Origin: Amphiscolops sp. MND2022
Lineage: Eukaryota
NCBI GenBank assembly: GCA_964187785.1
Contig: OZ076409.1
Coordinates: 92,008,001-92,072,000 of the forward strand
Length of the DNA: 64,000 nucleotides
Reading direction: 5' to 3'
The notes beneath the pieces are model-generated. The model made no database searches. It was not told the origin of the DNA and was given only the letters and a program-made list of their open reading frames with translations. Shown piece after piece: positions 26,187 to 49,452 of this stretch (its first letter is position 1; each line of letters starts with the position of its first letter). The position numbers were made by a program, and so were the translations under genes.

Positions 26187-29100
26187 CTAGGCGTGAGTTT
26201 GACGTAGTTCTTCCGTCGTAGCTGAGTCTAGCATTCTAAAGTCAGGATCCACGTTAGGTTTCGGATTAGGTCTCAGATTGTATCGACCTACTTTCCTAGG
26301 GTTATATCCAACGACTATAGGCGGTAGTTCAGGCGTTTTGGGAGGGCTTTCTAGAGGCGGTGGTGTTAGTATATAGGGATTGTCACTGACATCCAGATTA
26401 AATGACGTTACGTTGTCGGGGGGTGTTTTGTCTCCTTCGGCTGTTTCATTTGTGGCTGTTTGAGCCACGTCATTTTCCGTTGTAATCTCGCTTGTGGTTG
26501 TTTGAACCACGTCATTTTGCGTTGTAGGTTCGTCATTTTCGATTGTATCTGTGATCTCTGTGATTGTAGTTTCTTCTTTGGCGTTTTCCGTTGCGTCTCC
26601 GAACAGAACTTCTCCGAATTCGGTTTCCCAAGCTTGCGCGTACCAATCATTGTGGGTTGTTTTAACCTCTGGATCTGGAAGGTAATCTTCCCTTCTGACT
26701 GTTACGTCAGGTACTCGCTGATTGGGCGCATATAGCCTTAGGCGAATTCTATGGAGGGTTTGCGTGTAGCGGGTTCCTGTGCGGCGTACGACGTAGTTGT
26801 TGTTGGACAGTACTTTGACGACGATGTACGGACCCGTCCAGATGCAATCTTTGAAAACGAATTTCATTGACTGGTTGTCAGCTTTCGGATTCAAGACGTA
26901 GCAGTAGTCATTCACTTTGAGTGGCGTTGCAGTCGCTTTCTTGTCATAGTATTGTTTGTACTTGAGATATGACTGCATGAGATTGTCTTTAGCTGCTTGT
27001 TGTATCTCAGCTATCTGCTTCTGTAGTTGATCCGTTAGTTCGTCGTTGTTGTCTTTTTTCCATTCCGGCTTTAGTCCCAGCTTGATGTCTAGGATGTTAT
27101 ACGGGATGCGTCCGTGGAACACTGTTGTAGGTTCGCAGCCTAAACTTTCATGGTAGCTTGTATTGTAATTCATGACTGCTATTTGGACATATTTGTGTCA
27201 CATGGATCGTCGTTCCCCCGTCGATATCTTTAGGGAGGTTTTTAAAGAGGCATGAGTCCATTCTAGGATGCCAATGGTTTGAGCGTGTTTCGTCGTTGCG
27301 TGGCTTATTCGTATATCGAGTGTTCGTGCTATTTGGTCGACTACTTCTGACCTGAATTGTGATCCTTTATCTGTTAGTATAACGGTCGGTAGGTAGCAGT
27401 GTCGTGTCATGACGTCTATTATGCATCGTGCGACTGTTTTTGCTGTCATGTCCTGTGTCGGGTATGCGAAAAGATAACGAGAGAAGACGTCCATCATCGT
27501 GACGATGTGCTGATATCCATTGGAGGATGGTAGATTTGGTAGTATATCTACTTCTAGGCAATCTTCTGGTCCCAATGTGAATTCAGTGTTGCTCAGCATT
27601 TTGGGACGTATCTGTCGCGTGTCGATTCTTTTGTTGGCGATGCAGTCTGGGCAACTGGTAACCCAGGCGCGGATTTTTCGTGCTAGTCCCGGGAAATAGT
27701 ATTTGGCTCGGCATTCTTGTATCATCTTTGCTATTCCTGGATGTTTATTTGTCTTGCCATGTAGTGTTGATAGGAGTTCTGGTACAAGGTGTTTAGGAAT
27801 GATGACTTGATTGTGCGTGACTGATCCGTCCTCACCGTAGTATTTGCGCATTAGTACCCCATCTTTCATGATGATTCTTTCTTCGTGGCGTAGTAGGTGG
27901 CGTCCTCGTGGTTCAGTCTTTAGTAGGTGTTTGTCCTATTCTTCGTGCGACACCCGTTGTTTTAACGCTTTCAGTAGGGGGTCCGCATCTTGTTCGTTTC
28001 TGATTCGTGCGTTTTCTTTGATCGCTCCGAATGCATATACTGCGGAGTTGAGGGGTATTTTGATGACTTCGGTGACTTTGGTAGAAAGATCTTTTTCATG
28101 TTCGTCGTTGGCACGTTGTTTACTGAGGGCTTTCCAAGCGAAGATTTCTTGTTCTGATTCTTCCTCTTCATCTGGGAGGAAGAAAAGTTGTTCTTCATTC
28201 GCTACATCCGATGACTGTAGGTTTACTTCTATCGGTGCCGTAAGTATGTCGTACCGTAATTTCAGTTGTACTTTCTCTTTAGGTGTGAGTTCAAGTCTTG
28301 AGAGGAAATCTGCTGCCGTATTTTGTGACCCTGCTACGTGCATGATGCGGAAATTAAATTGGAGTACCTAGTCGCAGGCATTCCAAAGTGCAGGTGGTGT
28401 AGTTTTCGTTTGGAAAAATCGTGTGACCGAACGGTTGTCGGTTAAAACTAGCGTCGGTATTGTCGCTTCCCATAATATATGGCTGTATTCGAGGAAGGCG
28501 TGATATATGGCTAGAAATTCTTTGCAATAGATTGACATTTTCAGTTGTGCTGGTGAAAAAACACGGGATCCAAACGCGACAGGTGCGAAGGTTTTCTTTT
28601 TGGATAGTATTTTCTTTTCATCGTTTTCTTCTATCATGAGGGCATAGCCAGATGCGCGAAAACTTGCGTCTGTCATGAGAACGTATTGCTTTCCTGCTAA
28701 GGGCTGTCGGAGCGCGAGGCCACATTCTTCTGCTAGGCTGTCGTTGATTTCTTTGAAGTTGTCGACGAGTTCTTCGGATATTTTGATCTTGGCGTCGGCC
28801 TTTAGGAGTTCGTACATGCCTATGAGTTTTTCGGACAGGCGGGGTATGTAATTGCGATAATAATTGACGAATCCGATGTATTTTTGAACCTGTTTTTTGG
28901 ACTTGGGGAATCGAACTTTAGAAAGGAAGTTTTTGACTTTCTGGTCTTGCGGTGCTATTCCGTCTGGGGTGATGGTTCTGCCGAGGAATTCAACTTGTGT
29001 AACTCCGAAATGACATTTTTCGATTGTCAATTTCAGGCCTGCTTGTCTGATGCATTTGAAAACTGCTCTAATGTTCTTGATGAGTTGTTCCGTCGTATTT

Positions 29101-31437
29101 GCGGCAATACCAATGTCATCTACATACTGTGCACACTGATCTGCTTTGATGACTGCGTCGAGGTACTCTCGCATGAAGCTTGAGAAGGCTGAGAGGGCTC
29201 TACTTAGTCCTTGGGCTAGGCGCCGGTAGGCGAACGTTCTACTAGCAAAGTTAAAAGCAAGTAATTCTACTGACCTTTGATCTGCCATTTGAAGGCAGTG
29301 GTACGCTTGGGAGCAGTCGAGTTTGCAGAAAAGTTTTTTCCCAGCTAGGTGTTGTGCCGCATCTGAGAGGGTGCTGACGGGGTGGTTGTTGTTGATGTAG
29401 TCATCTGCTATGAGTGCGTTGATTTTGCGCAGATCCACCAGTAGTCTCAGTTTGCCGTTGGGTTTCCGTTGTGCAAATATAGGACTGGCGTACTTGGAGA
29501 AGGGGAGTGTCGTGATGATGCCGTATTTGTGCATGAGGGCCAGCTCTACTGTCAGGTCTTCTTTGAGATTGATTGGGACTGGTAGACTCTGGGTGTATAC
29601 TGGTTTATCATCTCTTGGTGTGAGGCTGACTTTGAATTGCGTGTTCATTCCGATGTCGAGACGGTGGCGGGCAAATATGTCGTTAAATTCGACTAATGTG
29701 CTTTCAAGGTTTTCACGGTCTTTGCCCGTAATTAGTGAGTCAGTCCATTTGAATAACGAAAGGAATTTGTGTCGAGATTCAGCGTTTTCAGTTGGATCTA
29801 GTTTTTCTAGTTCGGCAAGTTCTCGTAGTTCTTTCAAAATTCGTTTTTGTATGGCGGTGTGTTCTTGTTCATTGCCAGGGTTGTCTGGGGTTGGGAACCA
29901 GAATTTTTCTTCAATATCTTCGGGTTTGTCGACTTGCATAAGTGCGTTGATGTATGTGACTACATCGTCGTGCTCTGTTAGAAGGTTGAGTGCAGCGATG
30001 TCTACAGGCCGTATCAGTTTCGTTTCTTCTGGTTTGAGGATTTGTAGTTCCGCGATCTTGGTGTCTGGAGCTATCGTATAGGGGAAGTCTGTTGTGTTGG
30101 CGACCTTGATTGCTACTTTCTTGCTTCTGGCTGTTGTGATTGCTGGGGCTACTATTAGTTTTGAGTTTTCGTCGAATTGTGGTAGGGGCTGGATTGTCCC
30201 TGTGATGGTGTGTTCTGTTGTCACGGGTATCACTGCGTATATTATTCGCGTTGCTTGTGCTGGTATAGTATGTTTCGCTTCCGTTTTAATGGTGATAGGT
30301 TTCAGATTGCATTTTTGCATTTCGTCTGTGAGTGCCATCGTAATTTGAATCTTCGGGAAGTCAATTGTTCCGGGCAGTGTCGAGAATTGCGGCATGTTTC
30401 CGTAGGAATGCTAGTCCGATGATGGGGAAGGACATCTGGTTCATGACAATGAACGTTTCCTCAAAGTTATAGTTGCCAATTTTGAAACGTAATGTATACG
30501 TTGCCAGAGGTTGCTCGAGTTCAGCATTAGCATATTGTACCTTGAAAGGGGGTGGGGGTGCCTTGTGTATGATGCATTGGTTTGCATCTTGTCGGAGTTT
30601 TTCGGCGTCTCTTTCACTAATGGCATTGATGTATGCACCTGAGTCGACGAGGGCGTCTATTTTGACGGAATTGAAGTCTACTGGTAAGAAAAGCATTCGT
30701 TTTTTCTTTTTCAGTGTAATTGCTGACATTAGCGGAATGTAGTCGTCATCTTTGTCATGTTGTATGAATTCCTTGATGACGTCTAGGTCGTCGGGTAGTG
30801 ATGTTGGGTATTCTATTTCTGCATCGTTGCTTCTCGTCATCGCTGTGGCTGGTGCTGTCTGTGTGGGCGGTGGAGATGATGAATCAATGGTTGGGTCTTC
30901 AGGCTTCTGTTGCCACAACGTTTTATCTTCAATGCAAATGATGTCCTCTGCGTTTATGGGCGTGGACGTGACGGTGACGGGCACTGTTGGGGAAGGTCCT
31001 GGGTTCTTCAATATCGGTGAGGGCGGTGGTGGAAAATGATGTGTTTCTCTGGGCTGGGGCTGTGGGTTTGGTATCTGGATTTTGAAAGCAAGTTTGTTGT
31101 GGTCGTATATGTGGGGGTTGTCCCAAGGATCACATCTGTAGTCCACGTCATATATGTATGTTCGTTCAGTTTTGGATTCTGGCAGAGGTCGTTTCAGTGT
31201 GGCATAATTGTCAGGCGACTCCGTTATCCATTGGGGTAGTGGTGTTGGGTCTTCTGGGTGTCGTGCATTGTGTCTAAGTATCATGCCTACGTTCCAACGA
31301 CGTTGCCAGTCCTGTGTCGGTTCTTCGTTGCATTCTGTGAAGAAATCTTCCTCGTATCTATTTGGGGGGTCTTCGATGTTGTACGCCCTCGCGTCTACTT
31401 TTTCCCCGAACCGTAGACGCGGCGATTTTAGTTTTTT
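26187..31437 (-). pseudogene. pol: Gypsy-2 pol (PR LVDSGA; RT YVDD; RNase H; integrase H..H/C..C, D,D; long C-tail), disabled by one frameshift and three nonsense codons
   Basis: ORFs 30361-31284, 28368-30395, 27936-28343, 27198-27869, 26187-27173; the last four are in one frame separated by TAG, TAG, TGA. Confidence 0.95.
31384..31437 (-). promoter_or_regulatory. -1 ribosomal frameshift signal: A_AAA_AAC plus downstream hairpin
   Basis: Slippery heptamer 31431-31437 directly before the gag TAA; stem CGCGTCTAC/GTAGACGCG; the -1 frame is open into pol. Confidence 0.8.
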
Positions 31438-32885
31438 GTTTGGGTGTTGGCGGTGGGGACAGGGGCGTCACTGATTTTGTCCGTGGGGATGGTGAATTCC
31501 CTCTTCTTTCGTCTGGGGTCATTTGCCGCATTTGCTCCGTTCCAACAATTCTCGGTTTTGTGCATTTTTCCGCATGTATTGCACTTGGGTTTGGGGGCTT
31601 CGCTTTGGTTTAAGTCTTTGGTAGGAGGTTTGGCGTTGTTGTAGCGTTCTCTCTGGAGCCTGCGACACTGTGCTTTATAGTGGCCGTATTTTCCGCAGTG
31701 GAAACAATGACCTCGTTGTTGTTGGTCTTTTTTGTCTTCCGTCACTACAGCGTCCACTGTGTTGAGTGGGACTAGGGTGGTTTCATCGGGCGCTCCTAGT
31801 CCGTTTAATCGCATTTCCCGTTCGAGGTGGAGAATTATATCATTGTAGGGTTTATCCTCCAAGTATGCCCTGTTGAGTATCTTTTTTACGTGGTCGGGCA
31901 TTTTGGCGTAGATTGCGTTGTCGATGAATTTCTGTGCTTCAGAGCCAAACGCTTCTTTCGCGGTTTTTTGTAGGATATCAAGGAATTCGTGTAGTTTTTG
32001 TTTGGTGGGGTCAAAGTGGAGTGCGTCCCACTCGCATCTTGCTTTGGCGGAGGATTGAAAATTGCCAAAACGTCGTTTGAAAGCCGTTATGACTTCTTCC
32101 AGATTGTCTTTTTTAGTGTCGTCTAGGTTGCAGTACGCTTGGAGTGCGTTCCCGCGTAGTAGTGAGTGGAAGTAGTTGATTTTTTGGATTTCCGTCAAGT
32201 GGGGATACATTTTAATATTGTTTCGGAACAAGTCCTCAAAAAGTTGAAATTTTTTGGACTTACCATCAAAAACTGGAAGCGAAGCTGTGAGGGCTTTCGG
32301 CATCGGAAGTGGGTGGGCAGATGGGAACGTCTGCGGTTGTGGTGCGAACAGTATCTTTGACGTGGATGGTCGGTCTTTTGGTTGTTCGCTGAGTATACGT
32401 TGTGCTTTTGGTCTTTTGGTGGGTTGGTTAGTGGAATCATTGAGGACTCCTGTCACCATGTTACGACTATTGTTCGGTGTCGTTTTAGAACTAGTCGCAG
32501 TTTGTGCTTTGACTGGGGTGGACGTTCTCGCTACGGAGACGTTTTCTTGGTCAGAATCAGAATCTTGCAAGTTCAGATTAACTGAGCGTTTCTTGTTCGC
32601 AGGTGCTATTAATTTGAGCATTTCCTTTTGATTTTCAGCTAATATTTTTGTTAGATCAGTCATTATCTCTTTTCTCAGAGTTGTTTTTATTTCCTCCAGG
32701 TTTTCAAGCTCAAGTCTAGGGTTTTTACTAGAACTAGGTATCAGGTTTTCGGTGGAGTTATTTTCAGCTAGGGAAGCTTCAAAATCTCCCGACGCTAACT
32801 CAGCTATAGCTTTTCTCTTCTGGCTCCTTGTCGTCATTTTCAAAGTCGAGATATCAGAGTCTTTGGCAAGAATTAAATTCTTCAA
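31428..32885 (-). CDS. gag: Gypsy-2 gag (intact; likely start MTTRSQ at about 32837), two CCHC knuckles
   Basis: CFHCGKYGHYKAQC and CNTCGKMHKTENC; reads through the LTR end and PBS. Confidence 0.92.
   Translation of the reverse strand: MKNLILAKDSDISTLKMTTRSQKRKAIAELASGDFEASLAENNSTENLIPSSSKNPRLELENLEEIKTTLRKEIMTDLTKILAENQKEMLKLIAPANKKRSVNLNLQDSDSDQENVSVARTSTPVKAQTATSSKTTPNNSRNMVTGVLNDSTNQPTKRPKAQRILSEQPKDRPSTSKILFAPQPQTFPSAHPLPMPKALTASLPVFDGKSKKFQLFEDLFRNNIKMYPHLTEIQKINYFHSLLRGNALQAYCNLDDTKKDNLEEVITAFKRRFGNFQSSAKARCEWDALHFDPTKQKLHEFLDILQKTAKEAFGSEAQKFIDNAIYAKMPDHVKKILNRAYLEDKPYNDIILHLEREMRLNGLGAPDETTLVPLNTVDAVVTEDKKDQQQRGHCFHCGKYGHYKAQCRRLQRERYNNAKPPTKDLNQSEAPKPKCNTCGKMHKTENCWNGANAANDPRRKKREFTIPTDKISDAPVPTANTQTKN
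32446..32458 (-). promoter_or_regulatory. PBS TGGTGACAGGAGT (tRNA-Leu-like)
   Basis: Abuts the LTR-terminal CA. Confidence 0.8.
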
Positions 32886-34811
32886 AGAAATTTTGAGTTT
32901 TCGTAATTACAACGAGCAACAAAGTTTTGAAACAAATTCAAGTTCAACTAAAAATACATGTCCTCTCTACATATTTATACCTTCTTAGCATCATTTGTTC
33001 CTCACCTAAAAATTCCTAGGAATCTTAAAAATCGGGTTTGTTCAACAAAATTCGCCGATGATTCAAATTATTTCAGTCTGGCGTCATAAATTCAGGTATC
33101 GAAATTCCTAGTTGCGTCAACATTCCGTGAGACTTTGTTGAAATCATTTTTGTTCAGATAATCCATTTCCTGTTTGATCTTCAAAACCGCGGTAAAATGG
33201 AAGTCTAACTGACATTTTCATCGGCGTAGGCACGCCGGCGTGAACTATTAGTCAATATCCAACTCAAGGAGTTGGAATTTTGAGGAAAAAGATGATGTTC
33301 AAAAATGGTGACGGAAACGATACGTCGCTGAAAATTCGCCGTTGAGAATATTTGAAACGAGAAACAAATGATGCTGATGGGCATTAAGGCAGACTGACTT
33401 CAGTATACAACAAACATGAAATTCAACATAATAATTGACTTGGGTTACGGGAATACTCCGTATCATGTCCCAAATACTATCTAACTGCAACAGCACAAGA
33501 ATAAAAATAAAACAATGTAACAAAGGCATTTCAAAACTGGTACAAATCCGAAATTGCTTTCGGGATCATTCATTCATCATCATATTTAGGGTTAGGTTAT
33601 AAAATTAGCATCAAACAGACATCAGTATAATTTACGTATACACTTCGTGACTTGGAATTAGGTCCTGAGTAATACAGTTTTTATCATACAGAAAACATGA
33701 CGTAAGTTTACGAGGATTAGTGCAAAATCCATCACCATCAACTGATCATAAACTGCAAAGAAAGCATCGGCATGAATTACAGGTACACTCCGTAATATAG
33801 TATTTGAAAGGTATAGCAATGGCGTAATAAATTAGTATAGAATTCAAGACATTACAACTTTGTTCTTCTCATAATCCTTCCTCACAGTGCAGCTGTTTTC
33901 CTCTAAAACCTAATCAAGAAATTCCTTAGCTAATAATGAACCAGGAAAAATTCTCTTAAACTTTCATTCGTTCCATTCTTTTCTAACTATATGTTCTCAA
34001 ACCACTTCGCAAATGCTTCGTATGTATTAAGATTGCTTATAGTAGAGCGGTGGACTACAATTTTACAATTCGCCACGTAACTGCTACGTACGTATAAAGA
34101 TTGCTTATAGCTAGTAGGTCAGAGTGGACAGAAAGCGAGCGGAACGCGTAGGCGAATTCATTCTTTCTCTCTTATTCTGATTGGCGTTGCTAGGGGCAAC
34201 CGAATTCAATACCGCTCGCGCTAGCTAAGAATAATCCTGCCGAGGAGGTGACGTTATTAGTCCGCGAAAGTAGAATATCTAATTTTAGCTCAGTAGAGTG
34301 ACGCCGTCATTACGTTGTAAATCCTCTCTTAAGTCACTTGATTGCGCCTTAAGTGGGTATTGACAACTACTTTATCACAGAAAACACCAAAACAACTCTG
34401 TCTTTTATGTATTTTTCCTTTTAGATCGTATGGATTCCGTTGGGATTGCGGGATTTTAAATGTGTTTTATTTTAGTGTGGAACTGAAGAAAAATCCCTGT
34501 TGTTAAATGTCTATTTTGGTATTTAGATCAGTATGGCGAACTTCAGAAGATTAAACCGGATATGGAAAATCTATTAAGCGTGAAATCTTTTAACCGGAAG
34601 TTTTAGCTAAAAATCATTTCTAAAAATATTCCGTGACGCATACGTTAGATTCTTATTCTGAAAAATTGTCTACGAAATAATCTTAGCTGCACTGTAGGTA
34701 GAATTATATTAGTTTAGTTAGTATTTTAATGGTACTTGCAGTATCCCCTTCCTCTGCCTCTTCCTAGGGCGAAACACCATTCACACCCACGACCGGGAGC
34801 GGGTCGTGACA
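32459..34811 (-). repeat. Gypsy-2 5' LTR (2353 bp); contains the gag start and the last 86 nt of ORF287
   Basis: Minus strand begins TGTCACG and ends ..GTAACA directly before the PBS; near-identical to 13830-15446. Confidence 0.95.
34180..34200. promoter_or_regulatory. CCAAT box next to an RFX X-box-like palindrome GTTGCTAGGGGCAAC in U3 (copies about 17361-17381 and 20011-20031)
   Basis: Fits GTNRCY-N3-RGYAAC; TATAAG motifs lie downstream on the minus strand. Confidence 0.5.
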
Positions 34812-34816
34812 TATTC

Positions 34817-35430
34817 GAACAGCTACTGGACGACTTCAAAGCCTGTGTCAGTGAATAATTTTGGATTAGAGATTTTTTTGAATTTTTTAGATTTCAGGTT
34901 GCCATCTTCCTATGAAATTATAGCGAGCGTATTTCTTCTATAACTTAATTGATGGTAATATTTACTCCCTGGTAGGAAAGAACGCTTTCCTTGAATCACA
35001 AAGCGCAGGAAATATTAATTTTTGTCTTCAAAAATTGACGAGTGATGACATGGGGGTGCCGAAACGTTTCTTTGAAAGATCTTTTGTTTTTTTTTTAATT
35101 GACGTAGTAAGCTTTCACAGGATATTGCAGGGTGTTACATGATAATGCAGGAAAATGTTTTTTTTTGCACCATGAATCTGATCAAAGGTCATCTCAACGT
35201 TTCAAAACGTTTTAATATGATAGTTCGCCAGTTCATAGTTCATAGCTCGCCAGTTCATAGTTTTGTGAAAATGACTCCATGTTGGTTTCTTGCAGGTATT
35301 AAACTGGAATGGCCAATCTCATTGAAACAATCTTTGCACTCTGCCTGCTGTTTAGGAGTATCTTGGCTCTCACTTCGGGAAGTAAGTCGAACTGGTTCTT
35401 TCTATGACCCGCGAAAAAAAACAATGCTGT
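34817..35430 (+). pseudogene. Probable 3' continuation of the decayed hAT transposase
   Basis: Resumes after the TSD; RSILALTSGSKSNWFFS resembles a decayed hAT dimerisation motif. Confidence 0.4.
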
Positions 35431-36371
35431 CATCATAGAAACCATGGAAAAGGGCTGGCTGCTCGCTGCAGATTAAAGCTACTTGATTTCAAATGTCAAA
35501 TCGCAGTAAATTTGTGCATAATTTGTAGACGCAAATTCATTCAGCAAATCTTTCTCAATATTCAATAAGACATTCAGGGGAGATATATATGGCAGCAAAT
35601 GTCATTGACAATTAGAACAAATCTTTTCCCCTGAGCACTTTACAATCAGCATTTCACTTCCAGATATAAGTTTGAACAGCAACTCAATGCCGTTGGAAAA
35701 TGTCAATACAATTTGTTGCTCTAGGTTTTCCAAAAAACTGTTTTCCTCGTTCACTTGAACAATCAATTACATGTACTTCAAAATCGCATTTTTCTTCAAA
35801 TGATTGATAGTTTTGAGGTACACAAAACTGATTGAATAGGCTGCGCATCTTGTGATGTAAACAACTAAACTTAGATGAATAAAATAAACATAGATGGTTC
35901 ATCGGTTTGCAGAAAGTAAAAACCTGCTGTGGGGTGGGTTATCAAAAAAGGAGTCATCTGTTGTTTGCGTTGAAGCGGTGTTCCTTTTTTTGGACAGTTT
36001 CCTTGGACATGTTTCTCGCTCCATTATTTAAACCATAGTTTGTTCTGATTTCTAGTATGTACGGAAGTCTTTCCATAGTGGGATGACTCTGATCTTCAAG
36101 AATGGTACTGTTGTTTCAACTTGTGAATGCTGTAGCAAGGACAGCTGTACTTGGTTGCTATAGCTTGGATAGCAAAAAGGCTTAAAAAAGGAACACGTGA
36201 TATTCAAATTAGACGACAAAACAATGAAAATTGAACGCGGTAAAAGCGCTGAATAATACAAATTGAAAAGATGAATCATCGAATTATCAATATGATAATT
36301 AAGTAATCTCAACATTCCGCACCCCTTGATATGCATTTATCTACAATTATAAATCAACAATTGATTATCTG

Positions 36372-39300
36372 TTAGTGATCAATTGGAAGTTTCCTTAGCT
36401 TCACTACAGGTCTCAACATCTCTCCGGTGGCAGTCTTTACTTTGACCACTCTTGCGATGTCATCGTTTCCAGTATATGCATCAATGACACGACCAGTTTT
36501 CCATGAAAGGGGTGGAATATTATCTTCCGCGAGAAGAACTAAGTCACCAGCGCTGATTTGAGGCCCATTCTTGAACCATTTCTTTCGTACTTGGAGTGTT
36601 GTCAAATAATCTCTCATCCAAGCTTCCCAAAAATCCTTTTGAATTTGCTGGTGCAAACGAAAGCGGCCATTCAAGGAAAGTTTTTGATTACTCAGAGGCT
36701 GTGGCGACAAGGAACCACCAATTAGGAAATGGGCAGGTGTCAGCGGTGACAAGTCATTGGAGTCTGATGACAAAGGTGTCAAAGGCCTGGAATTGAGAAT
36801 TGCCTCAATCTGGTGGAGAACAGTAAGAAGCTCCTCATTACTTAATCGTTGTTGTCCAACGACACGACGTAAATGCCGTTTCAGGCTCTTGATACCAGCT
36901 TCCCACAGTCCACCGAAATGAGGGGCTCGGGGGGGGGAATGGTTATCCATTCAGATCCTTTTTTGTTTGCGTATGCAACGAATGATTCATGGTCCCTGCT
37001 AACGAGAAGTTCTTGTAACGTCTGTAGTTCATTTCTGGCACCAATGAAATTTAGGCTGTTGTCACTGAATATTTTTGATGGAGTACCGCGTCTAGAGGAG
37101 AATCTTTTCAAGGCCAGGATACATGCTTCTTTAGTTAGATTGGAAACAAGTTCGAGATGCACTGCTTTAGTGGCAAAACATACGAAGAGAGCTATTTATC
37201 GTTTTTGATTTGTCGCATCTCCGATTTTTGTCCAAACAGGACCAGCGAAGTCCAAACCACATTGAGAAAATGGTCTCGCTGGTGTAACTCGCTCCGCGGG
37301 TAATTCTCCCATAAGCTGGAAAGGGGGCTTTAACGAATATCGACAACATCTTATACAGTTTTTGATAAACCTATTTATGATCGGTTTCACTCCAACAATC
37401 CAAAATTGCTCTCTAATAGCAGAGTGAGTTAATTGCCCCCTACATGAAGTGTCTCTTCATGAAAGTGACGAACAATTAAAGGAACCAAAGACGACTCTTT
37501 CGGAATGAGAAGAGGGAATTTTTTCAACTCATTCAAGTTTGAATTCCCCAAACGGCCTCCAACTCGCAAAGCTTTGGCGTCTGTGTCATAGAAGGGACAG
37601 AGATTACGCAAATTTGAAAATTTGGAGAGCTCTTTTTGGTGCATTAGAAAATTGAAGTCTTGTTTCTGGAATCTTCTCTGCTCCATGCTTATCAAATCAT
37701 AAATAGCTGACCTTATCTCATGAGGTGAAATAGGTTCTTGAAAATGATTGCCATCTTTTTTGAGAGCTGCTAGAAAGCGCCGAACAATAGCTAAAACTCT
37801 ACACAGTTTAGTGAAATTGGAAAATCGCGAAATATCGATCAACGTTGGTTCCGATGTTACTGTTAAAACCTGTTTCGGTTCGCGTTTTTCGGGAACTTCT
37901 TCATTTGTAGGTCGATAATGTGGCCACTTTTCAATATCATCTGAGAGCCACGAAGGACCCTTCCACCATAACTCGTTATCTAATAATTCAGAAACAGTGG
38001 TTCCTCTCGAAGCAATATCTGCGGGATTTTCCTTCGTGGGAACATAATCCCAGTTTTTGCGAGGTAAAATTTCCTGAATATTGGAAACACGATTTGCCAC
38101 AAAAGTGTTCCAAACTCGCGGGAGTTTAGCAAGCCAGTTTAAAACGATTGTGCTGTCGGTCCAGGCGAAAATATTATATATAGCCAAAGCTTCACTCATG
38201 TGACATAGAAGCTGAGCTCCGAGTTGAGCAGCGCAAAGTTCGAGCAGAGGCATCGACAATTGTTTCACAGGGGCTACCTTTGTTTTGGCAGTGAGCAAAA
38301 ACACCTGCACTTTTCCATCGCAGTCTTTAGTTCGCACATAAACAACAGCTGCATAGCCCTTCTCAGACGCATCACAAAATACATGAAGTTGGCTGGTGTA
38401 CTTTGTTCGAGGAACAACACATCGAGGAATCTCCAGACCATTCAAACTGCTAAGCCCTTCACGCAATTTCATCCACTGATTCGCAATGGAGTCTGGAAGT
38501 TTCTTATCCCAAGAAATACCTTCCAACCAAGTTTGTTGAATGAGGCGTTTGAAGGCAATGATCACAGGAGCGATCCAACCGATTGGATCGAAAACCTTCG
38601 ACGAATCGGACAAGAGAGTCCGTTTGGTGGTCTGACTGATGTCATCTAAGTCAACTGAAAAGATGAATGTGTCTGAGATTGGTTTCCAGCAAATTCCCAA
38701 AGTTTTGATTTTATATTCTTCTGAAAAAAGTTGAAGTTGATCCGAGGTCTCACGCAGTTCTAAAGGAAGTTCCATAGTCAATCCAGGATGACTTGAGGTC
38801 CACTTTCTCAACTCGAAGCCAAACTTCGAGAGTTCCAGACACAACTCTTTTACAAGATTTCGTGCGTCTTCAATACTGTCAGCGCCACCAAGGAAATCAT
38901 CGACATAAAAACAATTGTTCAATGCGTTTGCCACCGATTCGAATTGAGTCTGACTGGCGACTTCTTTAAGACATCTTGTGGAGTGGAATGCGGAGGATGC
39001 AATACCATAAGTCACTCGCTTCATCCTCAGATGTTGAATCTCTTCATTTCTGCTGTTACGCCAGAGCAAACGATGAAAATATTTATCAGGACTATCAAGT
39101 TCGACTTGTCGATACATTTTTGCTATATCAGCTGATGGTGCAACTACCTTGAAACGGAAACGGTTTAGAATTGTGAACAGATCGTTTTGAACAACCGGTC
39201 CAATCATCAAGCTTTCATTTAGTGAAACACCGTTGGAAACCTTAGCTGAACCATCAAACACAACTCGTAGTTTTGTAGTTGTCGAATCTTCCTTGAAAAC

Positions 39301-41398
39301 ACAATGATGAGGTAAATAGTAAGTTTCATTCGACGGTTTATTGATTTCTTCTTGTGGAATAACTTCCATGTGGTCCAGAGAGATGAATTCATTTATAAAA
39401 TGGGAATATCTTTTCCTCAAATCAGGATTTCTGTCCAACCGGCGCTCTAACGATTTAAATCTACTCTCAGCCTGGGTTAGACTTTCACCCAAATGCATAT
39501 TCTCTTTAAACGGCAACTTGACAACGAATCGATTGTTAATAACCTTTGTTGTCGACTGGAAAAAGGTTTCACAACTGTTTTCTTCGTCAGTAAAAACTGA
39601 CTTTTTAGGTACGTTTTTTATCTCCCAAAACCGACGGAGGGTGTCATCAATCGAGAGATGGCAATGAAAAGCTTCCCCAACTGTGTCATCCCGGCGAAAT
39701 TTCCTTACGTTCAATTTCTATTATTTCTTCGAATACATCAGCACCAAGTATCATGTCGACTGGCTGGGAATGTCGAAAATGAGGATCAGCCAACTTATAG
39801 CGTTCAAGAACTTTAGGGAGCTGCAAAGTTTTGCTGGGCACGCTAGTGGTGAGTTGCTTCAGTACATACGCGGAAACTCGAATTTCTTTTGAAACTGACT
39901 TCAATACGATGTTAGTAAGGTCTGCTCTGACATCGTTCGACTGTCCACCAATACCACTGAGATTCAAGTGTTTCTCTGTTGTATTCAAATTCAGTCTCCT
40001 AGACAAAGCTTGCGTGATGAAACTCAATTGCGAGCCACTATCTAATAGGGCCCGACACGGGATGAGTTGATTTTTTGAATTCAAAACAGAAACAATAGCT
40101 GTGGGAAGCAAAATACTACAATTATTATTTTCTGTTACATTTCCGTCTTGTTTAAGATATAGACTGTTACCGCTGAATGTACTGGAAGTAGGCTCCTCCC
40201 GATGTAGCAATGAGTGATGTTTCCTTTTGCACTTCTGACAAGTTGATTTGGAAGTACAAGTCTTTATTCCATGACCTTCCTTCAGGCAGTTGAAGCATAA
40301 TCTCAATTGTTTGACCTTCTCATATTTGTCAGCAATTGAAAGATTGAGGAACTTGGGACATGTGTAAATACGATGAGATTGTTTGCAGAACGAACAAATC
40401 ATTGAAGTCGATTGATAGCTTTGATAATTTTCTGACTTGTTTTTAATATCAATATCCTTACTGCCTAATGCTTCTCGTTTCATTTCAGGTGATCGAATCG
40501 ATGCCTCTAGAGCTCTATCTCTTCGTTCAAGAAACTATCTCAGATCATCCATAGTCTTCATTTTACCGTCTACATTCGTCAATTGCCATTCCTTCGCAGT
40601 TTCGCTGTCTAGTTTTTCCGACAAAATATGCACCAAAATGAAATCGCTAGCTTTCGTGTCGATTCCTAAAGCACTCAAGGCCATTTCATTCTCATTGAAA
40701 GTCCCTATGAGTTTGCGAAGACTATCCGGGCCTTCCTTCCTCACATTCTCAATTTTCATGATATTGGTTAAGTGTGCCTTCGTGATCAGAAACTGGTTGT
40801 CATATCGATCTTGAAGCAATTTGATCGCAGCGTCGTAATTTGCAGCAGTGGTAGGCAAGTGTGACAAAACACATTTGGCGTCACCTTTTAACGCGCCCTT
40901 CAAATAAAAAAGTTTTTGCACTTTCGGCAGCGTTGGGTGATCATGGACTGTTCCTTTGAACATGTCAAAAAAGGATTTCCAATCTTTGTACTGACCGTCA
41001 AATGTAGGTAACTCAATTCTGGGTAATCGAACGTTATTCTCTCGGTGTATAGAACCGTCATCATCATCGGTGCTATCAGAAAGACCAGTTAGCCATTTTC
41101 TCATCTGCTTCATCAGACTTTCCAGTCTAACATCGTTTTCATCCTGCGTGAATATTTCAGCCTCCATGGCTTCTTCTGTATTTTCGGTACTATTTAAAAT
41201 TTCCAAGTTCAACTGATCGAGAACCCTAGCCTTCTCCTCCAGCGATTCAAGCAGCGTTTCAACAATTAATTTATCTTCAGAAGTAATTTCATCAACTAGT
41301 TTCGTCCTAATGTTTTCGAATTCACCTTTCTTTCGGGTTATTATACCCATGTGAGCCTTTCGAGAAGCAATTGACCTTCTCAAACCGCTTTCAGACAT
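36372..41398 (-). pseudogene. BEL/Pao gag-pol (DUF1759-like gag, CCHC knuckles, PR LLDSGS, RT YVDD, Pao RNase H, integrase, DUF5641-like tail) with stops and frameshifts
   Basis: LPRIELPTFDG, CSFCKQSHRIYTC, LRVVFDGS, FCDASEKGY, CGLDFAGP, FSDNSLNF, GGLWEAGIK. Confidence 0.93.
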
Positions 41399-41584
41399 TT
41401 TAGTGCTAAATAGAACAATTCTACTTCGGCTGTTACTTAGGTAGACCGTGTGCTCAGCCCCTTTCAGGCAGGACACGCTACAATTGATAAAACAAAGTAG
41501 AGTGAGTGTGTCGCAACGTATGAACGCAACCCCTTTCAGGCAGGTTCCTACAAAAACAGGAAATTTAAGACAATACCTTGGAGC

Positions 41585-42184
41585 TCAGAATGGATATCTC
41601 CAAGACTCTTTCGTTGTTGAAGTAACTTTCTTGTTAGGATCTTTCGAATGCTTCCTTTTAAGGACCTTTTCGTTGAGAAGTTTGTGAACTTTGGCAAAGG
41701 CTTTGCTTTCAAGATGACAAAGATCTTTCGATATGTGCTTTAAATCATAAAGATAATGCGAAACACCAACAAATATAATATTTGAGCAAAGTTGCCCACA
41801 GAGTGAGTTTAATTCAGCGTTCAATTGGAGCACCTTACTCTGTAGTTCCGATGTACCTCGTGGTGGCACACCAACAACGAAAACCTTCTTGGTGCGTGAA
41901 ATTAAAGCTTGAGCAATATCACAAATTTCGATCGCTACTGGGGAAGGTTCTTCTGCGGATCGAAAACTACCACTTTTCGAAACAAAATTCTCTAAGGCGT
42001 TTCCCCCAATAAATAACACAATTTTTTCGAACTTGTCTGGAGGTGGTATAAAATCCCAAAGATCTTTGGGGCGTGCTCCAGGAACAGATAAGACGTCAAA
42101 TGACGTAGTTCTAAACTTTTTCAGTAGGGAATCAGACAAAATGAGGTTTACTGAATTATTTTTTAAAAGCAGACTTCGTTTCAT
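41585..42184 (-). CDS. SGNH/GDSL hydrolase (esterase)-like ORF upstream of BEL gag, 199 aa from ATG
   Basis: Blocks LILSDSL (I), VPGA (II), FIGGNA (III), VGVPPR, DLCHL (V) in the canonical order and spacing. Confidence 0.75.
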   Translation of the reverse strand: MKRSLLLKNNSVNLILSDSLLKKFRTTSFDVLSVPGARPKDLWDFIPPPDKFEKIVLFIGGNALENFVSKSGSFRSAEEPSPVAIEICDIAQALISRTKKVFVVGVPPRGTSELQSKVLQLNAELNSLCGQLCSNIIFVGVSHYLYDLKHISKDLCHLESKAFAKVHKLLNEKVLKRKHSKDPNKKVTSTTKESWRYPF

Positions 42185-42238
42185 GTAGATTCCAATAAAT
42201 TTTTCCAAGAGAAAAATTAAAACGGTCTCACCATGGAA

Positions 42239-42256
42239 ATCACGTCGGGGTCACCA
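42239..42256 (-). promoter_or_regulatory. tRNA-Trp PBS TGGTGACCCCGACGTGAT
   Basis: 18-nt match to the classical tRNA-Trp PBS (as in avian sarcoma-leukosis viruses), 3 nt from the 5' LTR. Confidence 0.9.
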
Positions 42257-43382
42257 CCATGTTGTTTCAACTTGTGAATGCTGTAGCAAGGACAGCCGTA
42301 CTTGGTTGCTATAGCTTGGATAGCAAAAAGGCTTAAAAAAGGAACACGTGATATTCAAATTAGACGACAAAACAATGAAAATTGAACGCGGTAAAAGCGC
42401 TGAATAATACAAAATGAAAAGATGAATCATCGAATTATCAATATGATAATTAAGTAATCTCAACAGGTACTGTGACCCTGATAAAATATTACCTTCTGCA
42501 ACATTGGCACACGGTGGCGCTGTATCAACAGCTTTTTGGGATGCGCACACCATTGATGTTAGTACCAAAAACAATCTTTTCACAGGGAGGGGCTATTCAT
42601 TTCGAATTGAATGCACAGATCATTAAACTCGTTTTCTAACTTTCACTCGATGGGGCAACTTTTCGCGAATTTGTTCGGGCCCTTGTGTTGGACCTTCGTC
42701 AACCCCAAAACTGGAGTACTGGGATGTTTCCCCTCGTGCATTCAAGGCACTGGAAAATGATCTAAATGTTCTCTAATGTAACTTATTGTTTATGTACTGT
42801 TGTGATTAACATACGGCGGACATCACTTCGCAAACAAGATCTTGTTGTACTTTTGAAAAATCCGTAGTTTCTTTTTTGGGGCTTCGGGCTTCACTAGATG
42901 CCTAGAAGGAGCTGTTTCATTGCTGTTTTTGTGACAGCCTAAGACTCAAACTTGTGAGGTAAATCCAAAACCGAGAAAAAATATTGATACCATGTTTTCG
43001 TTAAAAGATGCGCAAGGCTATCTTTTCGCCGATAGAAGGTTTGAAAACGTTTCTCATTCCGGGTTACCACCATGCAAATCATACAGTTTCCATATAAGGA
43101 AATTACTTGCCATACATAAAAATTATGTTTGTGTCACGACTTCGAAGTTTTCCACAATTTCCTTTATTGCTTCATTGTATGACTCTCCTGTTTTCCAAGA
43201 AAGATTTTTAGTAAAACTGTGTTCTTTTCTGAGAAACCTTTCTAATAGTAATTATCGCAGGCTAATTCTAATCACGACTACGACAGCCGGACAAGAGGCC
43301 GTACCCGGCACTTTGCCGACATTTAAAAAAACTGACTCTAAGGATAAACTTTTGCCACATGTATTATCATGCTTTCATGTTT

Positions 43383-44914
43383 TATACACAATTACTATTA
43401 GTCTGTTAAAAGTAGGATTTGGTAGTTCAAATCAAGTTGTTGGAATTTGTTGATAAATGCTGAGTATGAATTGAAACAATGCAAGCAGAGACAACTATAC
43501 GGCAGTAAAGGAAATGCGTTCAAGTGACGTAAAGCTCTACTCCGGAAGCGTCACTTGAGCGCGTAGCCTGGTCCAATCAAATCGCAGTATATGTTGTGTT
43601 GGAATGTACATTTATTAACGGACAAATAAGGCTTTGGTCAAACGGCCGGTTCCGGCCATTTTATATATTTGTTGCTTTGATACCAATCATTCTTTTGATT
43701 GATTAATATTAGTACACTAATGCTAAATATCTACGCCAATGAAAGACTAACTGTCATTGCTTCGGATTTAATACCATGAGACAGTTAAGGACATTCAACC
43801 AAACTTTGAAGGCGCTTACTTGATAATAAGGCAATTAGCCCGTTCAGGCCCAATTGTGCTAGACGCTATATTAACTGTGCTAGGGTGGTTTGGCCCGGGC
43901 TACTTTGTTCAATGCAGTATTAGATATCATTCAGATTAGGCCATAGCCTTATAAAAGCTCATACTTGTAATCATATAATTTGTGCTTAGATGGATTCAGA
44001 GGAGCGCAAGTGGTCGCACGTCCAATGTTACATACCGCACATAGCATCAAATGTTTGTTGACATTCTTGAGTTGAATGTTTGTTAGCATAGAATAATGTT
44101 TGAAGTTGCAGCTGATATTCTAATCTTTGGTCGAGATGTTCCGTTTGTGATTTCCAAGGAATGTGTAAAATTAGGGAACTGTTTGATGTCACGTTTTTTA
44201 GGTATGTTAATTTACCCGCCTAATATGTAAAATATGCGAATGTCACCCTCCCGGAGGTATATATAACGGAATTCCTCAAGAGAGGGACACAATCCATTTT
44301 GATCAATTGATTTTGAAACGGTTTTATAGATTGCAAACCTGATTACCATTAAAATTTTACAACTTGAAATCTCCAATGCCTACTACCAAAAAACAAAAGA
44401 AAACTAGGAAGTCAAAAGGACTTGAAATGTTCTCAGATTTGGAGAACATAGATATTATGTTAGGCAGTAGACAATCTGAAAGAGAAGAAAGTGTAAATAG
44501 CAATCACGCAAGGAGACCACAGAGCGTTAATAGCAACCTGTTTGAAAACAACGAAAAAAGTTTATATTTGCCGAGAAGCTGAGTTAGGTGCTAATGCCGA
44601 TCTCGGAGAGAATTCCGCGAGTGTGCTAACTCTAGTGCTGAGATTAATAGACTGTCGAGTGAGTTAAACTCTAGAATATCTAAGGAGATGGATGAGATAA
44701 TGAAAAGTGTCAGTGTTCAGATTCAAAGGGCCATTAACGATGCCATTAGCAATCAGGTTTTACCTCAAATTCAAAATGCCATCATGACCAAAAATCGATG
44801 GAACGTTTCGGGTAAGAGACCGGACGCAAATCCCGAAGTTCCTCGAAGTGAAAAGGCCAGAAATGATTTGAGAAGTGAGCAACTTCAGAGTCGTCAATAC
44901 AATGACCATCTTGA
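43383..44914 (+). repeat. Solo LTR of a Gypsy-3-related family containing the gag N-terminal fragment (MPTTKKQKK..)
   Basis: Similar to 57442-59047 (tattagtctgttaaaa, ggccggttccggcca, gag N-terminus); no PBS or internal sequence follows. The left end is approximate. Confidence 0.75.
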
Positions 44915-47900
44915 TTGCTTCCGACAGTAATAGAAACCTTTCGACTGTTAAAATTGAACTTCGAGATGGATCCCGCTATATTCACATTCAAAACTTTTAC
45001 ATACGCAAACTTTGGCGAACTAAGCAAACCATGCATTAACAAGTGTTCGACTTCTTGTTCTTTTGGCAATAACGTTTTTGTTACAACCATCCCCTTTCTC
45101 ATGACGAGATTGCCAGATACCACAGATGGTAATTGTGATGTTGTTCTTACGTTTTTGATTGAAATTGGTTCCATGTTAAGCAGCGGCCAATACGTTCATC
45201 AACCCGGGCGTTAATTGACTACGTTATGATAATTTGCAATGTATGGAAATCATTTGGTCCAAGAAAAGATCATACTACAGAAATCTTCCGTTCCATAGGA
45301 GGAACATAGTATGGAAAACGCCTTCGTCATAGAATCACTATAGTTTGATCATTTTATCACATGGATGGATTTGTTTATTGCATGGTCCTAATATGACTGA
45401 ACTGTTTCCATTGAATCACCAAACATGACTTTTCATGATTTGAGTGTCTTTAGTGTGAAGGTCAAACCGGGATATTTGATCTCCTCTGTTTCAAAACCGA
45501 AACTAAATACAGTGTCCATGGTACCGTAAATTGCATTAGGCTACATATTAACCTAAATTTGATGACAATTTTTTCTCATTCCGGAATTTTCAATGCAAAA
45601 AAGGCGCGAAAATCATGTTTGGATTTTTTCAATTTGCAGCTCATAATCCTGGGAACTGAACGTTATATCCGAACTTTTGAAGTGTCATGTCCGAACTTTG
45701 AAAACGGTATATCCAACTTTGAAAACGTAATATCAGAACTTCGAAAACGTTATATACGAACTTTGGAAACGTTATATTCGAACTTTGAAAACGTTATATT
45801 CAAACTTTGAAAATTTTATATCCGAACTTTGAAAACGTTATATACAAAATTTGGAAGCGGTAATTCCGAACTTTGGAAACAAAAAAAGTAAAAGAACCAT
45901 ATCCGCTGGATAACGAAACAATCGAATGTTCCGAACATGCCATATCCTTTGGAGTTCATGTTGATCAACGTTTAACATACGATTTTGAAATCAAAAAGAG
46001 CTAGTACACATGGCCTAACATTTTTGAGCGAAACAATCCGGGAACGACATAAGTCGACATCAAATCTGAAGCTCAAAAATAGCAAAAGGACATCAAAGTA
46101 GCAAAAAACTCGAATGATCAGTTCCACAAAAATTGTTGCGAAACACTTTCGAAAGCCCAAAAAATCGAAATAGCGCGCCGGTTGGGTTTATCAACATACA
46201 TTATATGCAAAACACCAAAAAACTCGAAGGAGGGGCCCTTCAAATTGTTTTGAAAAAAGTGTCTATCAAGGCCAAGAAAACTGAAAAAAAGGACCCTTTG
46301 GGAATTTGCGACATCCATTCGGTCGCAAATATTCAAAATAACCGAAGGGAACACTTTGAAAAAAAAATGTTGTCATGACAAAGTCATGGACAACTGTACT
46401 ACAATAACAAAATTTCGTTGAAGTGCAGATCACAGTCAATCAAAAAGCCAGCAATCACAATTCAACACACAGGACGAATTAAAAAGATGGACGAGCGGAC
46501 CAGAAGGAGAATAGACAGAAAACTTGTTGGACTGATTCAACTGTACTAAATAATCTCATCTTAATCTAGCTTTCTCACTTGTCAAAATAAAACCAATCTC
46601 TCTACCCAATTTGTATTTTCTCTAAAGTTAGAAAGTTGAGCAAAGCAGAATTGACCCAACTCAACATTCGAATATAACATCATATAATTTGTGCTTAGAT
46701 GGATTCAGAGGAGCGCAAGTGGTCGCACGTGCCAATGTTACATACCGCACATTGCATCAAATATTTGTTGACATTCTTGAGATGAATGTGTTTGTTAGCA
46801 TAGAACAATCTGTTTGAAGTTGCAGCTGATATTCTAATTTTTGGTCGAGATGTTCCTTTAGTGATTTCCAAGGAATGTGTAAAATTAGGGAAATGTTTGA
46901 TGTCACGTTTTTTAGGTATGTTAATTTACCCGCCTAATATGTAAAATATGCGAATGTCACCCTCCCGGAGGTATATATAACGGAATTCCTCATGAGAGGG
47001 ACACAGTCCATTTTGATCAATTGATTTTGACACGGTTTTATAGATTGCAAACCTGATTACCAATAAAATTTTACAACTTGAAATCTCCAATGCCTACTAC
47101 CAAAAAACAAAAGAAAACTAGGGAGTCAAAAGGACTTGAAATGTTCTCAGATTTGGAGAACATAGATATTATGTTAGGCAGTAGACAATCTGAAAGAGAA
47201 GAAAGTGTAAATAGCAATCATGCAAGGAGACCACAGAGCGTTAATAGCAACCTGTTTGAAAACAACGAAAAAAGTTTATATTTGAATCCCAGAGAAGCTG
47301 AGTTAGGTGCTAATGCCAATCTCTGAGGGAATTCCGCGAGTGTACTAACTCTAGTGCTGAGATTAATAGACTGTCGAGTGAGTTAAACTCTAGAATATCT
47401 AGGGAGATGGATGAGATAATGAATAGTGTCAGTGTTCAGATTCAAAGGGCCATTAACGATGCCATTAGCAATCAGGTTTTACCTAAAATTCAAAATGCCA
47501 TCATGGCCGGTCCAGGACACATGACCAAAAATGGATGGAACGTGTCGGGTGAGAGACCGGACGCAAATCCCGAAGTTCCTCGAAGTGAAAAGGCCAGAAA
47601 TGATTTGAGAAGTGAGCAATTTCAGAGTCGTCAATACAATGACCATCTTGATGATCATATTGCTTCCGACAGTAATAGAAACCCTTCGGCTGCTAAAATT
47701 GAACTTCGAGATGGATCCCGCTATATTCACATTCAAAATTTTTACATACGCAAACTTTGGCGAACTAAGCAAACCATGCATTAACAAGTGTTCGACTTCT
47801 TGTTCTTTTGGCAATAACGTTTTTGTTACAACCATCCCCTTTCTCATGACGAGATTGCCAGATACCACAGATGGTAATTGTGATGTTGTTCTTACGTTTT

Positions 47901-49452
47901 TGATTGAAATTGGTTCCATGTTAAGCAGCGGCCAATACGTTCATCAACCCGGGCGTTAATTGACTACGTTATGATAATTTGCAATGTATGGAAATCATTT
48001 GGTCCAAGAAAAGATCATACTACAGAAATCTTCCGTTCCATAGGAGGAACATAGTATGGAAAACGCCTTCGTCATAGAATCACTATAGTTTGATCATTTT
48101 ATCACATGGATGGATTTGTTTATTGCATGGTCCTAATATGACTGAACTGTTTCCATTGAATCACCAAACATGACTTTTCATGATTTGAGTGTCTTTAGTG
48201 TGAAGGTCAAACCGGGATATTTGATCTCCTCTGTTTCAGAACCGAAACTAAATACAGTGTCCATGGTACCGTAAATTGCATTAGGCTACATATTAACCTA
48301 AATTTGATGACAATTTTTTCTCATTCCGGAATTTTCAATGCAAAAAAGGCGCGAAAATCATGTTTGGATTTTTTCAATTTGCAGCTCATAATCCTGGGAA
48401 CTGAACGTTATATCCGAACTTTTGAAGTGTCATGTCCGAACTTTGAAAACGGTATATCCAACTTTGAAAACGTAATATCCGAACTTCGAAAACGTTATAT
48501 ACGAACTTTGGAAACGTTATATTCGAACTTTGAAAACGTTGTATTCAAACTTTGAAAATTTTATATCCGAACTTTGAAAACGTTATATACAAACTTTGGA
48601 AGCGGTATTTCCGAACTTTGGAAACAAAAAAAAGTAAAAGAACCATATCCGCTGGACAACGAAACAATCGAATGTTCCGAACATGCCATATCCTTTGGAG
48701 TTCATGTTGATCAACGTTTAACATACGATTTTGAAATCAAAAAAAGCTGGTACACATGGGCTAACATTTATAGTCTTTATATACTCTTAGGTCATTTTTG
48801 AGCGAAACAATCCGGGAACGACATAAGTCGACATCATATCTAAAGCTCAAAAATAGCAAATAGACATCAAAGTAGCAAAAAACTCGAATGATCAGTCCCA
48901 CAAAAATTGTTACGAAACACTTTCGAAAGCCCAAAAAATCGAAATAGCGCGCCGGTTGGGTTTATCAACCTACATTATATGCAAAACATCAAAAAACTCA
49001 AAGGGGGGCCCTTCAAATTGTTTTGAAAAAAGTGTCTATCAAGACCAAGAAAACTGAAAAAAGGACCCTTTGGGAATTTGCGACATCCATTCGGTCGCAA
49101 ATATTCAAAATAACCAAAGGGAACACTTTGAAGAAAAAAATGTTGTCATGACAAAGTCATGGACAACTGTACTACAACAACAAAGTTTCGTTGAAGTGCA
49201 GATCACAGTCAATCAAAAAGCCAGCAATCACAACTCAACACACAGGACGAATTAAAAAGGTGGACGAGCGGACCAGAAGGAGAATAGACAGAAAACTTGT
49301 TGGACTGATTCAATTGTACTAAATAATCTCTTCTTAATCTAGCTTTCTCACTTGTCAAAATGAAACCGATCTCTCTACCCAAATTGTATTTTCTCTAAAG
49401 TTAGAAAGTTGAGCAAAGGAGAATTGACCCAACTCAACGTTCGAATATAACA
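43971..49452. repeat. Tandem duplication, units 43971-46679 and 46680-49452 (about 2.7 kb, moderately diverged)
   Basis: Collinear identity with several small indels. Confidence 0.95.
45650..45885 (+). repeat. Minisatellite, about 22-bp unit GAACTTTGAAAACGTTATATCC, about 10 units (second copy about 48400-48625)
   Basis: Directly visible degenerate tandem array. Confidence 0.85.

Follow-up and report, generated by a model that had tools for sequence, protein, structure and literature searches.

A stand-alone gene for a predicted SGNH esterase upstream of gag in a BEL/Pao retrotransposon clade of Amphiscolops

Transposon-borne SGNH genes and the window element

SGNH esterases have been described in CR1, RTEX and Penelope-like elements, and the esterase of ZfL2-1 has been shown to possess hydrolytic activity and to bind liposomes (PMC3905857). 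In elements of the ZfL2-1 type, the esterase is a domain of ORF1p that follows a coiled coil and takes the place of an RNA-binding ORF1; phospholipid binding and transposon-specific His and Ser positions also mark this class (PMC3905857). Among LTR elements, rotifer Vesta carries a GDSL/SGNH ORF3, which follows pol and is shared with Athena/Terminon elements (PMC5408684). Transposons of other orders carry SGNH genes whose function is unproven: in Ngaro the ORF is located after the recombinase (10.1101/2021.08.05.455354), and the Helitron-borne texim genes contain introns (PMC4021074). Belpaoviridae, in turn, are profiled with gag, pol and env only (PMC8742986), and the word 'esterase' is absent from the main text of PMC3118150. 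We found no report of an SGNH gene in BEL/Pao or of a 5' stand-alone esterase associated with leaky scanning in the literature covered; Repbase, subscription papers and supplements were beyond its scope and may hold one.

The window, i.e., the 64,000-nucleotide stretch of Amphiscolops sp. MND2022 DNA analysed here, contains a complete BEL/Pao copy of 6,357 bases on its minus strand (Table 1). It is bounded by two LTRs and a target-site duplication and has a tRNA primer site, a purine tract and a pol in the order protease, RT, RNase H, integrase. The order of Pfam matches (DUF1759, aspartyl protease, RVT_1, Peptidase_A17, Integrase_H2C2, DUF5641) assigns it to BEL/Pao, and the Pao-specific domains score strongly (DUF1759 E 2e-38, Peptidase_A17 E 2e-50, DUF5641 E 2e-31). 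The ORF at 39686-40534 contains three gag Cys/His knuckles. LTRs, the tRNA primer site, gag, the PR-RT-RH-IN order and a length within 4-10 kb are common to this element and Belpaoviridae (PMC8742986; PMC3118150), to which the window element adds a 5' gene. Its primer also differs: Belpaoviridae primers are listed, descriptively, as Arg or Gly (PMC8742986), whereas the first 15 tRNA-encoded bases of the site correspond to the 3' end of a tRNA-Trp(CCA) gene in this genome (ARAGORN, locus L111).

The additional gene is a stand-alone ORF of 199 codons that starts 54 bases after the primer site and ends 186 bases before the gag start. The coordinates, LTRs, primer site and target duplication thus bear out the first-pass annotation, which had placed such an ORF between a tRNA-Trp primer site and gag inside a TSD-bounded element. 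Its remark that the ORF is unbroken while gag-pol is damaged is true and yet uninformative: gag-pol has 5 breaks (2 stops, 3 frameshifts) over about 5,030 bases, and at that density a 600-base stretch would be spared with a probability of about 0.55, so the contrast carries no weight. Despite these breaks, the LTRs differ at only 2 of 206 bases, as if an already broken template had been copied or the assembly contained indels. Elsewhere in the window, a Gypsy-like element (26187-32906) has very long terminal repeats, in which a 288-aa ORF without annotation is tandemly repeated (13830-22317, 32459-34831), and a tandem duplication of about 2.7 kb (43960-49450) contains a 22-nt repeat array and a gag-like leader fragment.

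Table 1. Features of the window element, in window coordinates
Feature	Position	Strand	Basis
Target-site duplication, 5' copy, 5 nt	42466..42470	-	identical to 36104-36108
Whole BEL/Pao element	36109..42465	-	LTR pair, target duplication, Pfam domains
5' LTR, 206 nt	42260..42465	-	2 differences from 3' LTR, TG..CA ends
Primer-binding site complementary to tRNA-Trp, 18 nt	42239..42256	-	3' end of tRNA-Trp(CCA) gene
Upstream mini-ORF of five codons; ATG in 3/6 subfamilies	42217..42234	-	sequence
Stand-alone SGNH hydrolase gene (predicted), 199 aa, ATG 42184, stop 41585; one out-of-frame ATG, no internal Met, pyrimidine at -3	41585..42184	-	
Spacer stem-loop, copy 1	41517..41552	-	
Spacer stem-loop, copy 2	41445..41480	-	
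gag-pol, ATG 41401: capsid region, three Cys/His knuckles, protease, RT, RNase H, integrase; purine at -3	36372..41401	-	
Purine-rich tract preceding 3' LTR	36315..36327	-	sequence
3' LTR, 206 nt	36109..36314	-	LTR pair
Target-site duplication, 3' copy	36104..36108	-	identical to 5' copy

How does this gene compare with those already described? With the LINE ORF1p esterases (CR1/L2/RTEX, ZfL2-1, PDB 4C1B; PMC3905857) it shares a predicted SGNH fold, the Ser-His-Asp triad, a Gly/Asn oxyanion hole and a place in the first ORF of the RNA. Unlike the ZfL2-1 domain, it is a separate ORF added ahead of an ordinary gag, and the LINEs of this genome likewise depart from that type in having a stand-alone esterase before a normal PHD-type ORF1. 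With Vesta and Athena (PMC5408684) it shares the separate SGNH ORF in an LTR retrotransposon, intact catalytic residues, occurrence in several retroelement classes of one genome and an activity that is only predicted. Vesta ORF3 follows pol, with no BEL/Pao carrier named in the accessible portion of that paper, whereas the window gene precedes gag; a position 3' of pol occurs here in a different BEL family (group D). Further differences from Vesta are that genes in Amphiscolops are also carried within LTRs and by Gypsy elements and LINEs, that they are under clear purifying selection as judged from substitutions, and that their AUG depletion suggests scanning. Given Vesta and Ngaro, the surprise that the first-pass annotation expressed at an SGNH gene in an LTR element was overstated. 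What the present data add is a BEL/Pao carrier, placement of the gene at the 5' side and within LTRs, wide sharing inside one genome, a scanning signature backed by a natural control, and hairpins attached to the gene.

The predicted enzyme and its conservation in one BEL/Pao clade

The SDSL, PGA, GGN and DLCH blocks, from which retention of the triad and of the oxyanion residues had been proposed, correspond to S19, G36, N62, D154 and H157, and among 48 alignment rows these residues are kept in 42, 45, 44, 44 and 44, respectively. Block I of the window protein has a Ser at the position where the family name (GDSL) has a Gly. An AF2 model of the protein (pLDDT 89.3, pTM 0.86) matches the three-layer alpha/beta fold of solved SGNH enzymes, as the first-pass annotation had anticipated: Foldseek ranks PAF-acetylhydrolase (E 2e-7) and sialate O-acetylesterase at the top, a VIA-align comparison of the model with the latter gives a Z score of 17.9 and an rmsd of 2.2 over 160 residues, and the structure alignment delimits the predicted SGNH domain to residues 1-178.

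The window protein alone had no GDSL match in a Pfam search, and a PDB sequence search with it was also empty. A match to the Pfam GDSL model is not a defining feature of the SGNH fold. Among the 48 family members, 23 match Lipase_GDSL_2 at E<=0.01, with scores below the curated cut-off, and the 48-row profile finds the ZfL2-1 LINE esterase 4C1B as its best PDB match (E 5e-4), with the catalytic blocks in register; a 13-row esterase profile yielded chance matches only. As a further lead, the ESM Atlas ranks GDSL-labelled clusters first for the window protein (score 0.94, family on 46% of members), and a profile search of 1.84 billion representatives retrieved 453 proteins at E<=0.001. The window protein is basic (pI 9.6) with a basic C-terminal tail and has no membrane-spanning stretch. 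We predict that the gene product is an active SGNH esterase with a Ser-His-Asp triad. The first-pass annotation had pictured a lipid- or membrane-acting enzyme; because the nearest structures are small-acyl acetylesterases, a lipid substrate is not implied.

Is the gene a regular constituent of its element? Esterase homologues in this genome amount to at least 153 matches (150 of 805 candidates scored), gag lies downstream in 30 of 30 loci examined, and in each of six subfamilies, with protein identities of 54-100%, the gene is found between primer site and gag. In 15 pairs drawn from these subfamilies, pN is 0.12-0.32 against a pS of 0.64-0.88, and dN/dS is 0.07-0.18 in the 7 unsaturated pairs; the pN values are similar to those of gag (0.10-0.31) and RT-RH (0.14-0.20). 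By these substitution patterns, the esterase gene is under purifying selection like gag and pol. The related genes in LINEs of this genome might suggest that the ORF is a nested LINE fragment or a neutral passenger. The selection data refute this idea, because all six subfamilies have the ORF in one position, with synonymous sites saturated and pN low; moreover, neither a remnant of LINE ORF1 or ORF2 nor a tail is present beside it, which agrees with the first-pass annotation, and the ORF is not nested among LINE esterases.

The gene was absent from all 14 of the next-closest full BEL loci, hand-chosen from the BEL match list. In an RT-RH tree of rows from this genome, the seven esterase-carrying rows form a clade (99) that is nested among BEL lineages without the gene. 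Six copies of the clade (L105-L110) show no esterase match and also lack the gag start, and thus represent deletions rather than clean absences; locus L094 has one weak esterase profile match (E 0.029), located outside its element. The simplest reading of these sequences would be one gain at the base of the window's clade, old enough to saturate synonymous sites. Alternatively, the esterase may have been present in BEL anciently and been lost many times. Several BEL families without the esterase (L091-L097, L098, L100, L104) have instead an unannotated opposite-strand ORF of 150-340 aa between pol and the 3' LTR.

Access to gag and the hairpins after the stop

How might ribosomes reach gag? 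An ORF of 600 bases preceding gag is expected to block cap-dependent translation. Between the two starts, however, the window copy contains 1 ATG where 9.4 are expected from dinucleotides, as opposed to 20 (18.6 expected) in a control stretch of gag of equal length, and the six subfamilies together contain 4 where 56.9 are expected. A codon test, in which the protein was fixed and codons were drawn from gag-pol usage, extends this to 18 ORFs (16 located 5' of gag or ORF1 or in an LTR, plus the solo-LTR-like L088 and the unclassified L081): they contain 12 out-of-frame ATGs against 99.3 expected and 1 internal Met against 61, counts that overstate independence, as the pooled ORF families are related. 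The esterase start has a pyrimidine at -3 in 17 of the 18 ORFs, and the downstream start has a purine there in 13 of 16. A natural control is provided by BEL group D, a single family with the gene 3' of pol, in which two copies have 9 and 8 ATGs (6.0 and 5.4 expected) and an A at -3. Because upstream-placed ORFs are AUG-poor with a weak start and the 3'-placed family is not depleted, gag is likely reached by leaky scanning past the weak esterase start. These start contexts and the AUG depletion also make it likely that the esterase is the first ORF translated, as the first-pass annotation had supposed.

We envision that a minority of ribosomes would start at the esterase, while the rest would scan about 780 AUG-poor bases to gag, so that scanning would fix a low ratio of esterase to Gag without splicing. 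We are fairly confident of this step. The same signature, a long upstream ORF without internal AUGs and a weak start followed by a stronger one, is known from rice tungro bacilliform virus (PMC5902531) and from green-algal bicistrons (PMC11892635); scanning distances are similar, with 900 nt in those systems. There leaky scanning has been tested, whereas for these animal retrotransposons it is deduced from sequence. Several observations run counter to scanning: BEL group E is only partly depleted (6 ATGs against 12.5), a pyrimidine occupies -3 of the gag start in Gypsy1, scanning ribosomes would have to pass structured hairpins, and in the window's subfamily the ORF is bracketed by donor- and acceptor-like sites.

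The latter sites raise the alternative that splicing removes the esterase ORF from the RNA translated into gag-pol, with the unspliced RNA as the source of the esterase. In the window's subfamily, a donor-like site immediately past the primer site and acceptor-like sites within the spacer would fit; each of the other five subfamilies has a weaker donor, however, an acceptor is not evident in one, and an intron would not need to lose AUGs, which renders splicing improbable. Gag might also be reached by termination and reinitiation or by internal entry guided by the spacer hairpins. Conserved hairpins do follow 30-140 bases past the stop, and in one non-LTR element a downstream hairpin aids reinitiation (PMC5902531). 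Reinitiation predicts, on the other hand, AUG avoidance near the stop rather than throughout the ORF, it does not predict a weak first start, and the gap from stop to gag start varies from 80 to 325 bases across loci; we regard it as no better a candidate than splicing. Finally, stop-codon readthrough could fuse the esterase to Gag. The spacer of the window's subfamily can be read through in the frame of gag, and among 26 copies the stop is kept in 23, absent in 2 and preceded by a frameshift in 1; one copy (L037 775-6633) has esterase, spacer and gag-pol in one frame, open for 1,975 codons, which we take to be a private mutation. Such a spacer is confined to this subfamily, where the stop is mostly in place; several in-frame stops interrupt the spacer in 4 of 4 loci of other subfamilies, in 4 of 6 subfamilies its length is not divisible by three, and a weak search for longer or fused relatives of the esterase returned none among 840 candidates. 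Readthrough is therefore largely refuted across the clade, and we give it hardly any credence.

The spacer of the window's clade harbours a stem-loop in two or three copies in all six subfamilies and at no other locus (39 of 114 loci), and a model of this clade A hairpin has 10 matches, all within the clade. RNAalifold keeps only 4 inner pairs. A longer structure exceeds shuffled controls in pairing (82% paired, 1/500) and, less clearly, in double-change pairs (6, 40/500), an excess that provides modest support because the structure was drawn from the same sequences. A different hairpin, shared between classes, follows the esterase stop in BEL-D, BEL-E, Gypsy1, three LINE groups and L081. Its model, R2, was trained on 15 hairpins, and the 51 best of its 64 matches are all sense-strand sites directly downstream of an esterase ORF (positions compared by eye), including weak ones in Gypsy2, which was outside the training set; most of the others are sister copies of training families. 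The LTR-borne BEL group B has no such hairpin. A reverse-complement relationship between the clade A hairpin and the shared one found no support: on neither strand does the model of one detect the hairpins of the other. Since hairpins accompany the gene even 3' of pol, they look like part of a cassette and not like a gag packaging signal. A search of Rfam over 41380-42480 gave two chance matches far below gathering scores. Separately, tiny intron-like GT..AG stretches of about 27-31 bases occur after the esterase stop (window 41545-41573; L031, L033, L039, L040, L059, L071, L088) and could bear on RNA processing.

Might the protein act primarily on RNA? Oskar is an RNA-binding protein. It has also been named as a non-catalytic SGNH protein (PMC3905857). 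Conceivably, the main job of the esterase could be to recognise the hairpins after its own stop, for translation feedback or packaging, with catalysis being secondary. The one to three hairpins behind the stop in the window's clade, the shared hairpin known from BEL-D, BEL-E, Gypsy1, three LINE groups and others, the position of the best R2 matches, the persistence of hairpins with the gene 3' of pol and the basic C-terminal tail would all fit. The catalytic residues are nevertheless kept, group B lacks such a hairpin, the clade A and shared hairpins do not cross-match, and the ZfL2-1 esterase does not bind oligo-A RNA (PMC3905857); on balance, a primary role in RNA binding appears unlikely.

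Carriers in other classes and possible roles

A wider survey of the same genome, based on two distant relatives as queries (150 scored for each) and on 60 stretches hand-picked across groups, recovered the esterase in several classes of transposon. Among BEL elements it is found after the primer site (group E), inside both LTRs, which measure 1.3-1.6 kb, ending just before the primer site (group B), and between pol and the 3' LTR (group D). Two Gypsy groups have it just 3' of the 5' LTR; in these (L067 1374-1400, L071 8230-8272) no tRNA primer site is evident, and the esterase starts within about 20 bases. In three LINE groups it stands in front of ORF1, which in one of them contains a PHD finger. 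At the DNA-transposon-like locus L079 (4267-8365), an AUG-depleted esterase ORF precedes SET, DUF1258 and weak Transposase_21 matches, a link that is tentative because the only second copy is rearranged and partial. At several other esterase loci the neighbours are not classifiable. This family across many transposon classes, its AUG-free coding sequence and the downstream hairpins were missed by the first-pass annotation.

The esterase tree, a quick search with long branches, mixes the classes, grouping BEL-E with one LINE group and Gypsy2 with another. AU tests on 17 rows and a quick tree, with groups named by class after the esterase tree had been seen, reject a single clade of BEL-borne esterases (p 0.0008) and of LINE-borne ones (p 0.0002). 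These comparisons support an exchange of the esterase among transposon classes of this genome, and the gene is not the product of a single LINE capture; a LINE source is not shown, since the esterase of the window's clade sits on a long branch of its own, separate from the esterases that LINEs carry in the same genome. Its nearest tree rows are five public proteins (P0074, P0084, P0100, P0112, P0133). Each of these has 2-4 internal Met, unlike the depleted transposon family.

Taken together, we favour, at a probability of about 0.6, the reading that one BEL/Pao clade has long retained this ORF as an accessory gene for a predicted active SGNH esterase, which is likely translated by leaky scanning from the gag-pol RNA. 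The gene would have been gained once, at the base of the clade, from a pool exchanged between transposon classes, a step we hold to be probable, if slightly less so than scanning itself. How might the enzyme serve the element? As a basic, soluble protein it might act at anionic membranes and strip off acyl groups, short or fatty, which the ZfL2-1 esterase is able to do in vitro, and such deacylation might help the assembly and transport of particles or RNPs. This is the weakest step of the proposal, and we advance it tentatively and with some doubt.

Alternatively, the esterase may be a counter-defence factor that deacylates a host molecule; being useful to any transposon, it would be taken up by all classes. 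Some of its carriers form particles and others do not (BEL, Gypsy, LINE, one DNA-transposon-like locus), and it is always a separate soluble ORF. The DNA-transposon link consists, however, of one locus and one rearranged partial copy, and such a role seems to us about as improbable as primary RNA binding. In a more general and somewhat less unlikely version, the esterase, its own hairpins and its AUG-free coding sequence might constitute a portable cassette that can be inserted before the first gene of any BEL, Gypsy or LINE element, or even of a DNA transposon, without blocking it and that confers a class-independent benefit, such as disarming host defence or steering RNA through hairpin binding.

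These data extend the carriers of predicted SGNH esterases to BEL/Pao, in three positions. They also argue, at the level of sequence, that ribosomes of an animal host may pass a long first ORF of a retrotransposon by leaky scanning, for which the 3'-of-pol family serves as a natural control. Why transposons repeatedly acquire SGNH esterases has been a standing question since such enzymes were recognised in LINE ORF1 proteins. Because the protein considered here is small and stands alone, and is kept under purifying selection in many independent families, its substrate and role should be testable without the rest of an ORF1 protein.
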